Shown: positions 3,001 to 6,000 of the stretch, piece by piece | Position numbering within the stretch: the first letter of the stretch is position 1 | Layout: every line of letters starts with the position of its first letter | Assembly: GCA_016794445.1 (NCBI GenBank) | Contig: JAEUKC010000017.1 | Coordinates: 5,893-69,892 of the forward strand | Direction: 5' to 3' | DNA: 64,000 bases | Source: Myxococcales bacterium | GTDB taxonomy: Bacteria > Myxococcota_A > Polyangia > Polyangiales > JADJMO01 | Made by a program: the position numbers

Positions 3001-6000
3001 GCGTGCCCAGCGCTGGATGAGGAAGGGCCCGCCATGGGTGCGCGGGCCAGCGAGGGTGGGGTCGAGCACCCAGAGCTCCGTGACTCCCGTGGCGGCGTGA
3101 CGCGCCGGAGCCTCTCGGTAGTCCTTGTTCGGGTGCGACGTGCTCACGACCTCGATCGAGAGCAGCGGAGGGCCGTGTTCGAAGGTGGCGATGCTCGTCA
3201 GCGCGCGACGCTCGCGAGGCGCAGGCGAGACCACACAGACGTCTGGGTCGATGCCGATGCGACGATCGGTGGGATCGATGCGCACGGCGATGTTGCGGTA
3301 GACCTCGGCGTCGTGCTGTGTGCGCTCGACCCAGTGCTCGAGGACGAGCTTGAAGCGCTCACAGAGATCGTCGTGGAGCGGAGACTCGGGCACCGTACCC
3401 TCCGGGATCTCCCAGCCCGCAGGGTCCACGCGGACGTCGTCGTAGCGAAGGCGAACGGCGCGCGGCTCCATGAGTGAGGAGTGTAGCATCGCCGTGGAGG
3501 CTGCCAGCGCCGTGCCAGGCACACTGCCAGCAGACGGCTCTACTTTCTTCGGGGATCTCGCGTGACCGACGAGGGGCATCCGCCGGTCTCGCCGGCGGCC
3601 GCCGGCGGCCGCCGAAACGGATCACCCCGCCGCAGCCCGATCGCAGCGGCGAATGGCGGCATCGAGGTCCTTGCGGTGAATGACGGCGAGCACCGTCAGC
3701 TCGCGGCCCTCGATTCGCGCCAGGATGCGATGGTGGATACCCACGCGACAGGAGAGCAGTGGCCTGGTCGCCGTCACCATGCTCTTGACCTGGTGCCACA
3801 CGCCGACGTCGCCGGCTGCGAGCGACGCGGCCGCCAGGATGGCCTTGCCGGCGATGGCTGTTGGCACCTCGCGAAGCTCGTCTCGCGCGGACGATGAGAA
3901 GGTCGGGATGAGCACGCCTCGGGGAGGGGCGACGGGGCCTCCCTCGTCCTCCTCCGGTGCGTCCGAGCTGCCCGCGGCGTCAGTCGCGAGCGTCTCGTTG
4001 ACCCGCGCCAGCTCGCGCCGAAGGCGGCTGCGCTCTTGGTTGCGCTCCATCAGCATGTGCTTCAGCTCGTCGACCTTGGCGCGGAGCCTACGTCGCTCGA
4101 CGTCCTCGACGATCGTGACCGGTGCCGGCTCGCTGGGGCTCGGAACAGCCGGTAGCTCCCGCAACGTCGTCTCTTGCGCGCGCAGACCTCGTTCGAGCTC
4201 GGCGACACGGGCCTTGGACTCGTTCAGCTTGGCACGCAGCGCGTCGGCTTCGTCGGCGAGCTTCTGGCTGCGCTCGCTCTCCTTGCGCTTCCCGAGGTCG
4301 TCCACCCGGCGGGCGGCGTCTCGGTCGAGGAGCAGCTCGAAGGTGTCCCTCGAGGGGTCGCCGGGCGGCAGCGCGAGCCGATCGCGCGCCTCTTCGATCA
4401 CGTCGAGCAACATCATCGAGTCGATGGCCCGAGGCAGGCTGAGGCTTGCTCGCGCCGTGAGGATGCCCAGCGCTGGTGATGCAGCGAGTAGACCGAAGGA
4501 CAGGTCGAGGAGCCCGTCGCCGTGCGGCTCGCGGAGTCCTCGGACTGCCAGATCTTCGAGGTACGCGAGCGTCCGGTCGGACGGGCGGTGGAGCTCCAGC
4601 TTCAGCAGGTCGGACGCAGGCATCGACGTGCCATCCCGGAGCAGACCCATCTGCCGCTCTGCGCCCGCGAACTCGCCCGCCTGCAAGAGGTCGGAGATCA
4701 AGTCGAGACGGTACCCTTCCGCGTCTGCCCCATCTGGCGGGTCGGTTCGCGCCGCCAGCACGTCCATCGCGCGCTCGGCGAGATCCCAGCGATGAAACAG
4801 GCTCGCGCGTCGGACCGCCGCGATCAGCGGGCGGGTTCGCAACGCTGCGAAGTCCACCTCCGCGAGGTCCGACGGACGCAGACCGTCGACCTCGTCCGCG
4901 CTCATCGTCGCACCGGAGGTGCGCAGGTACTCCGGGCGGGTGAGGCCTGCCTGCGGGGATGGATCCGCGGCACGCGCGGCGTCCGTCGCCTCGCAACACT
5001 TCTTGTACTTCTTGCCGCTCCCGCAGTGGCAAGGGTCGTTGCGGCCAACCTTGGGCACGGCGCGCCGCACGGTGAAGCCAGACACGCCGCGCGTCGGCGC
5101 GCGCTCCTCGAGCGCGTCCAGGATCGGCGCCGAGAGCAACCGACGCAGACGCTCGCGCAGCGGCCTCGCCTCGACGACGTTCGCCATCGGCAGCCAGTTC
5201 TTCGCGACCTCGAGCACCTGGGGATCGCGGAGCTCCTTGGCGGCGAGCGCGAGGAGGATGCTCGCCTCGACCCCGAGGCGCCGACGGGCCTGCAACCTCA
5301 CGAGCGTCGACAGGCGAGGCGGCGCTGGACCTTCGAGGAGCTGGACGGCGAGGAAGAGCGCGAGCGCATCGCGCTCGCTGCTCATGCGATCCGACCCGAC
5401 GCAATCGAGGAGCATCTCGACGCGGTCGCCGCCGCACGCCCCGACCAGTGGCGGGAGCAGCTCGATATCGGAGAGATCAGGGACGACCCGGGCGACGAGC
5501 TGTGCTGGCGGGGGCAAGCCGGCGACGGCTGCAGCCAGCAACACCTCGCAGGCCGTGTCGGCGTCGAACTGGCGGAGCGCCTCCTCGGCGCGCTCCGCCG
5601 GGTTCAGCCGTCCCGCCGCGATTTCGTCTGCGAGGCCGCGAACGCTGGAGCGCGTCGGGTACGGCATGCGCCGATGCTAGCGCGGGAGATGCTGGCGCGC
5701 GTCGACCCCATGGGCGGCCGCACGCAGCGGGCTTGGACTGCGCTCGACCTTCACGCGCTGCGCTTCTCGAGCTTCGCGATCCTGCGTTCGTGGTCCTCGA
5801 TCTTCTTTCGGTCGAGGCGGTTGTCGCGCAGGAGATCACGCACCTCCGATGCACGACACGAGGACGACGAGCCCGACAGTCGCGGAGCAGACGGGGAACG
5901 CAGCGTGTGGGCGCCAGCATACGTGGAACGGCTGAATCGGTCGGCCGCGACGATGGACTGCGCCCGGGCGCCGTGCCGAGCGCGCGTGCCAGCAGAGGCG

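Follow-up and report, generated by a model that had tools for sequence, protein, structure and literature searches.

The 64,000-nucleotide window analysed here (contig JAEUKC010000017.1 of the Myxococcales bacterium assembly GCA_016794445.1, positions 5,893 to 69,892 of the forward strand) encodes on its reverse strand a protein of 681 amino acids (aa) in which a SecA-type zinc knuckle, the SEC-C motif, is embedded in a large helical scaffold and a domain of the RelE/ParE superfamily forms the C-terminal tail. The protein is most likely a cytoplasmic, single-polypeptide member of an uncharacterised family of fixed architecture, and neither an antitoxin gene nor any other conserved partner gene accompanies it. 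Toxins of the RelE type, the textbook example of mRNA cutters that depend on the ribosome, are almost always kept in check by a separate antitoxin. We tentatively propose, with a rough probability of 0.4, that the protein is a self-contained RelE-type translation inhibitor that would be docked on ribosomes by its zinc knuckle and restrained in cis. The family is undescribed though widespread in soil bacteria. Public annotation names its proteins only as "SEC-C metal-binding domain-containing protein", and the architecture is implicit in databases, where PF02810 (SEC-C) and PF24732 ("ParE_like") are paired on a few members, yet it is undescribed as such; in the library searched, nothing relevant was found on a combination of SEC-C with a RelE/ParE-like domain or on PF24732.

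A single gene with a fixed five-part architecture

The window has a G+C content of about 70 %, and in the codon-position plot the third-position G+C signal (GC3) stays in a single frame (coordinate modulo 3 = 1) from about 3670 to about 5650, with no switch of frame. Because GC3 is confined to one frame across the open reading frame (ORF) at 3622-5667, a frameshift joining two genes has no support. An earlier interpretation, made from the sequence alone (hereafter the sequence-only reading), had described one 681-aa protein in four parts, namely a helical N-terminal region, the SEC-C motif, a long charged coiled coil and a C-terminal domain. The ORF list and the Pfam search confirm the ORF as well as the positions given for the SEC-C motif and the C-terminal domain, and the four parts are likewise correct, the AlphaFold2 model adding a second helical-repeat domain to make five (Table 1). 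This full-length model reaches a predicted local distance difference test score (pLDDT) of 90.9 and a predicted template-modelling score of 0.72. In the 681-aa protein Pfam recognises SEC-C above threshold, together with weak coiled-coil matches and a sub-threshold match to PF05016 at the C-terminus, and NCBIfam recognises the zinc knuckle alone.

Table 1. Features of the fusion gene and of neighbouring genes, in coordinates of the window.
Feature	Position	Strand	Remarks
SEC-C/RelE-like fusion gene, complete	3622..5667	-	681 aa, ATG start, stop codon 3622-3624
N-terminal alpha-solenoid	5074..5667	-	aa 1-198; 13 helices (aa 6-185); AlphaFold2 pLDDT 91-99
SecA-type metal-binding domain (SEC-C zinc knuckle)	4990..5061	-	aa 203-226, CxCx8CC motif
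Second helical-repeat domain	4360..4983	-	aa 229-436; AlphaFold2 helices 244-430, pLDDT 89-98
Antiparallel coiled-coil hairpin	3976..4356	-	two long helices, aa 438-504 and 520-564 (AlphaFold2)
Acidic Pro/Gly-rich flexible linker	3910..3975	-	aa 565-586; pLDDT <50 for aa 565-575
Predicted C-terminal RelE/ParE-superfamily (BECR-fold) domain	3625..3909	-	aa 587-681; basic K628, R641, R647, R665
Uma2-family (PD-(D/E)xK-like) gene	2710-3579	-	PF05685 E 5e-15; directly downstream of fusion gene
30-codon ORF (VRDLLRDNRLDRKKIEDHERRIAKLEKRSA)	5751-5843	-	83 bp upstream of fusion gene; coding-like codon-position G+C
Tandem genes, one base apart	6071-6499, 6501-6950	-	about 145 aa each; N-terminal hydrophobic segments suggested by sequence
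674-aa protein, three DsbA/thioredoxin_4 repeats	7107-9131	-	
GT4 glycosyltransferase	1500-2702	+	PF20706 "GT4-conflict" 36.4 bits vs 26; GT1/GT4 models far higher

The N-terminal solenoid matches no Pfam or NCBIfam family and finds at best weak, generic helical-repeat folds among PDB structures. The zinc knuckle that follows is exposed in the full-length model (approximately aa 200-226), and its SEC-C motif (aa 208-225, nucleotides 4993-5046; aa 209-226 in the Pfam match) matches PF02810 with an E-value of 8.4e-9 and 35.6 bits against a gathering score of 20.4. It is the best-conserved stretch of the whole protein: across 71 sequences, R209, N210, C213, C215, S217, G218, K220, K222, and C224 are invariant and C225 is conserved to at least 90 %, and the knuckle is almost identical, conserved Ser included, to the C-terminus of the SecA encoded on one contig (L089, see below). 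The second helical-repeat domain, for which there is no Pfam family, terminates in a conserved EEARDRL-LPPGDP motif and shows near-invariant residues at P398, L400, R406, R428, L431, and D437. In the hairpin, to which Pfam gives weak coiled-coil matches, the second helix carries a conserved ERNxERxxLRRxL motif with R546 invariant and L528, L535, L549, and R550 conserved to at least 90 %. The linker ranges from 6 to 137 aa in length, and among 247 homologues its net charge is negative in 81 %. In one homologue of 815 aa (P0049) it is enlarged by a low-complexity, His/Gly-rich insert of about 130 aa (GHGGHGHG... repeats), which indicates that the leash tolerates large changes in length.

A database search returned 77 full-length homologues (616-815 aa, 25-66 % identity), all with PF02810 and five of them already bearing a precomputed PF24732 hit alongside it. 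When the N-terminal 460 residues alone were compared with 1.84 billion cluster representatives, 142 matches reached E≤1e-30 and 436 reached E≤1e-10. Almost all of the best 150 have lengths of 640-760 aa, and solenoid, knuckle, helical repeats, hairpin, and RelE domain are present together in 122 of the top 140 cluster representatives. The reverse search, with patterns of the RelE domain against metagenome contigs, yielded 80 loci with 52 ORFs uncut by contig ends, of which 43 are full length and come from many samples. Neither search gives any sign of effector or sensor swapping, and the fusion is obligate and genuine. The family comprises at least 142 clusters at 50 % identity, and its named sources are genomes of Myxococcota (Polyangiaceae, Sandaracinaceae) and Kiritimatiellae alone, a range that is drawn from these few source names. 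In addition, 80 SEC-C proteins were obtained by a scan of genome contigs with the full-length alignment, which used the SEC-C motif as its sole pattern; all proved unrelated and none is a family member.

Some loci depart from this picture. On two related contigs the first 30 codons of the gene are identical: in one (L169, 911-1363) they run directly into the linker and the RelE-like domain to give a protein of 151 aa, and in the other (L170, 553-1759) the gene is split into ORFs of 250 and 133 aa, so that both look like deletion or frameshift decay products of the full-length gene. On two other related contigs, from marine sediment, a gene situated just downstream of the fusion encodes a further SEC-C protein, which is small and has the motif close to its N-terminus (L123, 1822-2274; L124, 2654-3268).

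The C-terminal domain and its relatives

The assignment of the C-terminal ~95 residues to the RelE/ParE superfamily, as the sequence-only reading had proposed, is borne out by family-level Pfam matches, profile searches of PDB sequences, an AlphaFold2 model, and its structural comparison by Foldseek, which together place the predicted domain nearer to the RelE side of the superfamily. For the window protein itself the Pfam matches fall below threshold: its last 102 residues align with profile positions 3-87 of the 89 in PF05016 (E 5.6e-4, 20.9 bits against a gathering score of 23), and PF24732 gives an E-value of 0.022 (15.2 bits against a cut-off of 24.4). Among 47 representative C-terminal domains, PF24732 was matched by 36 at E<0.01 (best E 5.9e-8) and PF05016 by 13, so that the family as a whole matches far better than chance would allow. 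A family profile searched against PDB sequences covers nearly the whole domain both in Mycobacterium tuberculosis Rv2866 (RelE2/RelG, E 1.5e-5) and in Thermus thermophilus RelE (E 8e-5), with weaker matches to YoeB, RelE, RelE1, RelK, and archaeal RelE; ParE chains are absent from this search even at E<10. One family member taken alone matches Rv2866 with an E-value of 0.0022, the motif fSARxG-YRLLfR...HR being common to both. Armadillo-repeat matches that head the profile list were rejected as an artefact, as the alignments show them to be summed insignificant matches to one helix, each stretch with an E-value of at least 16.

The AlphaFold2 model of the domain, built from the domain alignment (pLDDT 94.1), has RelE topology with the elements E10-13, H15-23, H26-40, (H44-47), E50-53, E60-65, E69-76, E79-87, and H88-103. 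In Foldseek it is matched with a probability of 1.00 and template-modelling (TM) scores relative to the target of 0.70-0.77, the top ranks being taken by RelE2, Cami1 (apo and ribosome-bound), T. thermophilus RelE, RelE1, YoeB, and YafQ. Structures of ParE2 and ParE rank below the RelE-type ones, with worse E-values and TM-scores of 0.47-0.57 as compared to 0.58-0.69. The RelE-like domain is net basic (median charge +5) and is second in conservation only to the zinc knuckle within the protein; across 247 full-length proteins R647 is conserved to 100 %, R665 to 99 %, R641 to 95 % (with Lys in a further 4 %), and K628 to 87 %.

With the RelE mRNA interferases (Escherichia coli RelE; RelE2/RelG Rv2866, 3g5o; T. 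thermophilus RelE, 2khe) the domain has in common its predicted fold and topology, detectable homology, the motif given above, putative equivalents of K54, R61, and R81 of E. coli RelE, and its net basic character. In contrast to these stand-alone toxins of ~90 aa, it is the tail of a 681-aa protein, has no RelB-type antitoxin gene, and does not conserve the equivalents of K52 and Y87. Cami1, a CARF-RelE protein of type III CRISPR systems (8phb, 8phj) and the second-best structural match in Foldseek, likewise tethers a RelE domain covalently to a regulatory module. PMC11229360, citing Mogila et al. 2023, describes activated Cami1 as cleaving A-site mRNA, a precedent for a tethered RelE effector, and the title of Mogila et al. 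2023 describes its capture by the ribosomal stalk. Unlike in Cami1, the RelE-like domain is combined here with helical repeats, a zinc knuckle, and a coiled coil, and docking is proposed to proceed via the knuckle; neither Pfam nor PADLOC matched a CARF domain or cyclic-nucleotide sensor in the 681-aa protein, and the ORFs within ~7 kb of its gene include no recognisable CRISPR-associated gene.

The zinc knuckle links the protein to a second group, the SecA-like metal-binding domain (MBD) proteins (the SecA tail, AscA/YecA, YchJ, and some methionine aminopeptidases), whose CxCx8C(C/H) knuckle is nearly identical, with the conserved Ser and Lys residues. In the 681-aa protein, however, the knuckle is internal (aa 203-226) and combined with a RelE-like domain, and no ATPase or chaperone domain is recognisable. 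Finally, multidomain or fused RelE/ParE toxin-antitoxin proteins resemble it in carrying a BECR-fold toxin domain within a larger single-gene polypeptide. The catalogue of multidomain RelE/ParE toxins by Gerdes 2025 (mBio, PMC11980606) includes no SEC-C fusion, excluded multidomain proteins for which neither an antitoxin gene nor an antitoxin domain could be identified, and analysed PF15781 and not PF24732; the 681-aa protein falls in the class thus set aside. No antitoxin domain (RelB, ParD, Phd/YefM, or helix-turn-helix) was recognised in it with Pfam or NCBIfam. Summed up, the missing antitoxin gene sets the protein apart from type II toxin-antitoxin modules, the missing antitoxin domain from the catalogued fused toxin-antitoxins, and the missing CARF domain from Cami1.

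Genomic neighbourhood

No antitoxin-like ORF flanks the fusion gene in the window, in agreement with the sequence-only reading, and neither a conserved neighbour nor a conserved small ORF was found across 90 loci. The sole candidate, the 30-codon ORF upstream (Table 1), has a GTG start that overlaps a GGAGG; it was rejected as a conserved antitoxin partner for its poor start context and lack of a counterpart at the other loci. There is no Rfam match in 2600-7100 that would point to an RNA antitoxin or regulatory RNA, and a search of 3300-6200 for promoter- or terminator-like sites was negative. In a gene-by-gene reading of seven homologue loci, no shared neighbour emerged. Likewise, clustering of 341 neighbouring ORFs from the 90 loci gave no family in more than six loci; the largest cluster is glycogen phosphorylase, kept beside the gene in one sub-lineage, which is ordinary chromosomal synteny within that lineage.

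Directly downstream lies a Uma2-family gene, whose product matches the PADLOC candidate system PDC-S03 (E 1.2e-15) and ends in an Ala/Glu-rich coiled coil of ~60 aa. The gap between the two genes is 42 bp when counted from the first ATG and 132 bp with the ATG at 3489. The latter is the likelier Uma2 start, because GC3 is flat across 3490-3580 and the Pfam match begins at profile position 26, which favours the 132-bp gap given in the sequence-only reading. The further suggestion of a two-gene defence or stress-response module formed with Uma2 did not hold: a Uma2 homologue is near none of the 89 other loci of the RelE-like domain, so the adjacency is coincidental and the fusion gene self-contained. 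Nor did the wider defence connection find support, as the only matches of PADLOC-DB 2.0 to the 681-aa protein involve the SEC-C motif and, in one weak case (LmuB), the coiled coil, and PADLOC and Pfam searches of 127 ORFs flanking 42 full-length homologues revealed no recurrent defence or other family and no defence family in more than two of these ORFs.

On the upstream side, a gap of ~400 bp separates the fusion gene from two small tandem genes for putative membrane proteins, which look like paralogues and have a weak match to a bacterial PH domain (bPH_6, E 0.012). Beyond these lies the gene for the multi-thioredoxin protein; at one homologue locus (L002) a related multi-thioredoxin protein is encoded ~4 kb from the fusion homologue, and the two occurrences hint at residual synteny between distant family members.

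Proposed mechanism, alternatives, and significance

RelE acts at the ribosomal A site alone. In the proposed mechanism, a RelE-type domain would be tethered by the flexible acidic linker to the large helical scaffold, which also bears the SecA-type zinc knuckle. From the scaffold's position on the ribosome, this domain could reach the A site and cleave or block the mRNA, using R641, R647, and R665. Since there is no antitoxin gene, the activity would have to be restrained in cis, conceivably by the solenoid and coiled-coil scaffold and/or by the acidic linker, until a signal frees the RelE-like domain. The protein would thus act like a fused, self-inhibited toxin, unlike a two-gene toxin-antitoxin pair; ribosome docking, nuclease activity, cis-inhibition, and a trigger are what we infer for it. 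Docking may be brought about by the zinc knuckle, on ribosomes and possibly also on SecB, as it is by related MBDs: that of SecA binds SecB and ribosomes, and AscA/YecA depends on its own MBD to bind the same two partners (bioRxiv 10.1101/613315, 10.1101/2020.07.21.215244). A more specific version, which we consider quite doubtful, is a ribosome-docked surveillance nuclease, in which the MBD would place the protein on translating ribosomes or SecB-engaged nascent chains and the leashed RelE domain would cut that very mRNA when the scaffold senses a problem.

Several points weigh against such an inhibitor. The comparison with E. coli RelE is itself one of them, being an hhalign mapping of low probability, in which S639 corresponds to K52, R641 to K54, R647 to R61, R665 to R81, A671 to Y87, and K628 approximately to K43; the alignment with Rv2866, which is independent of this mapping, agrees with it at the three arginines. 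At two of the five catalytic positions of E. coli RelE the residue is not kept: the position of K52 is occupied by Ser in 52 % of the proteins, by Arg in 25 %, and by Met in 15 %, and that of Y87 by Ala, Thr, or Trp. By this mapping, the domain lacks the general base and the Tyr of the E. coli type, and catalysis may therefore be weak, different, or absent. In addition, the zinc knuckle is internal here as compared to terminal in SecA and YecA, so its binding could differ. The question whether catalytic-type residues are retained, already raised in the sequence-only reading, hence has a divided answer, with the equivalents of K54, R61, and R81 kept and those of K52 and Y87 not. Catalytic residue sets differ among RelE-family members, and the conservation of R641, R647, and R665 indicates that the putative RNA-binding and transition-state residues are under strong selection.

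The short relatives of the domain are a further point of this kind. A profile search found 135 small proteins (64-178 aa), many of them contig-end fragments and some with the JGI label RelE. Four of them lie inside long contigs, and none of these four has an antitoxin-like neighbour. With four neighbourhoods devoid of an antitoxin and many fragments, the short relatives were rejected as classical toxins with antitoxins, and relatives of this sort are at least as compatible with a domain that is not toxic as with a toxin that inhibits itself. One of the four, a stand-alone copy of 92 aa (L089, 2501-2779), is located 88 bp downstream of secA (2-2413) on the same strand, and the SecA encoded there ends in the same zinc knuckle that is found inside the fusion family; this single case is suggestive of a SecA link or of the route by which the fusion arose.

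These observations bear foremost on the possibility, on balance unlikely but the most credible of the alternatives, that the RelE-fold domain no longer acts as a nuclease and instead binds ribosomes, RNA, or proteins as a module of a non-toxic, vertically inherited factor, for example one in co-translational targeting or quality control tied to the Sec pathway. An antitoxin would then be unneeded because the domain is non-toxic, which would suit its absence from 90 loci and from the neighbourhoods of the stand-alone relatives, and the loss of the K52 and Y87 equivalents, the SecA-like zinc knuckle, and the copy next to secA point in the same direction. The sub-lineage in which the gene stays beside glycogen phosphorylase and ordinary genes suggests chromosomal inheritance as well. 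However, the residues conserved to 95-100 % are the basic ones of the RelE active site, which would be unexpected if the domain were purely structural, although these could also serve RNA binding without cleavage, and the secA adjacency is a single case.

Distinctly improbable is a single-gene toxin of abortive infection or stress, a CapRel-like fused toxin-antitoxin whose scaffold would sense a phage or stress protein and free the RelE domain, with docking being incidental. Large helical-repeat domains commonly act as sensors, and the Uma2 neighbour in the window matches a PADLOC candidate; fused toxin-antitoxins and multidomain RelE/ParE defence proteins are documented (Gerdes 2025, PMC11980606). 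Yet the PADLOC match of the protein itself goes through SEC-C and the weak LmuB coiled coil, defence families are not enriched in the flanks of the 42 homologues, Uma2 adjacency recurs at none of the 89 other loci, no antitoxin domain is recognisable by Pfam or NCBIfam, and the monolithic architecture lacks the effector and sensor swapping typical of defence proteins.

Very improbable indeed is a ParE-type DNA gyrase poison. The names of PF24732 (ParE_like) and PF05016 (ParE_toxin) might suggest it, but PF05016 includes E. coli RelE itself, so that Pfam names cannot separate RelE from ParE, and gyrase-targeting ParE is described as being without the BECR RNase catalytic residues (Gerdes 2025, PMC11980606), whereas the R61 and R81 equivalents are invariant or nearly so here. 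ParE2 and ParE structures are indeed among the fold matches, but they are the weaker ones, and the profile search of PDB sequences gives RelE-, YoeB-, and RelK-type chains only. That the fusion is an assembly or frameshift artefact of two genes, a doubt attached to the sequence-only reading, is refuted by the continuous GC3 frame and by the recurrence of all five parts in the 122 of 140 independent representatives and the 43 of 52 complete metagenomic ORFs.

In any case, a RelE module is joined here to a domain type whose binding to ribosomes and SecB is known, and the family does without an antitoxin. If the domain is active, the protein would represent a second natural solution, after Cami1, to the regulation of RelE in cis, and would point to a possible connection of Sec-dependent targeting with mRNA cleavage; should it operate as a surveillance nuclease, stress in targeting or secretion would be coupled directly to A-site mRNA cleavage in an antitoxin-free manner. 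If the domain is inactive, the family would exemplify a toxin fold that has been domesticated as a ribosome-binding module.

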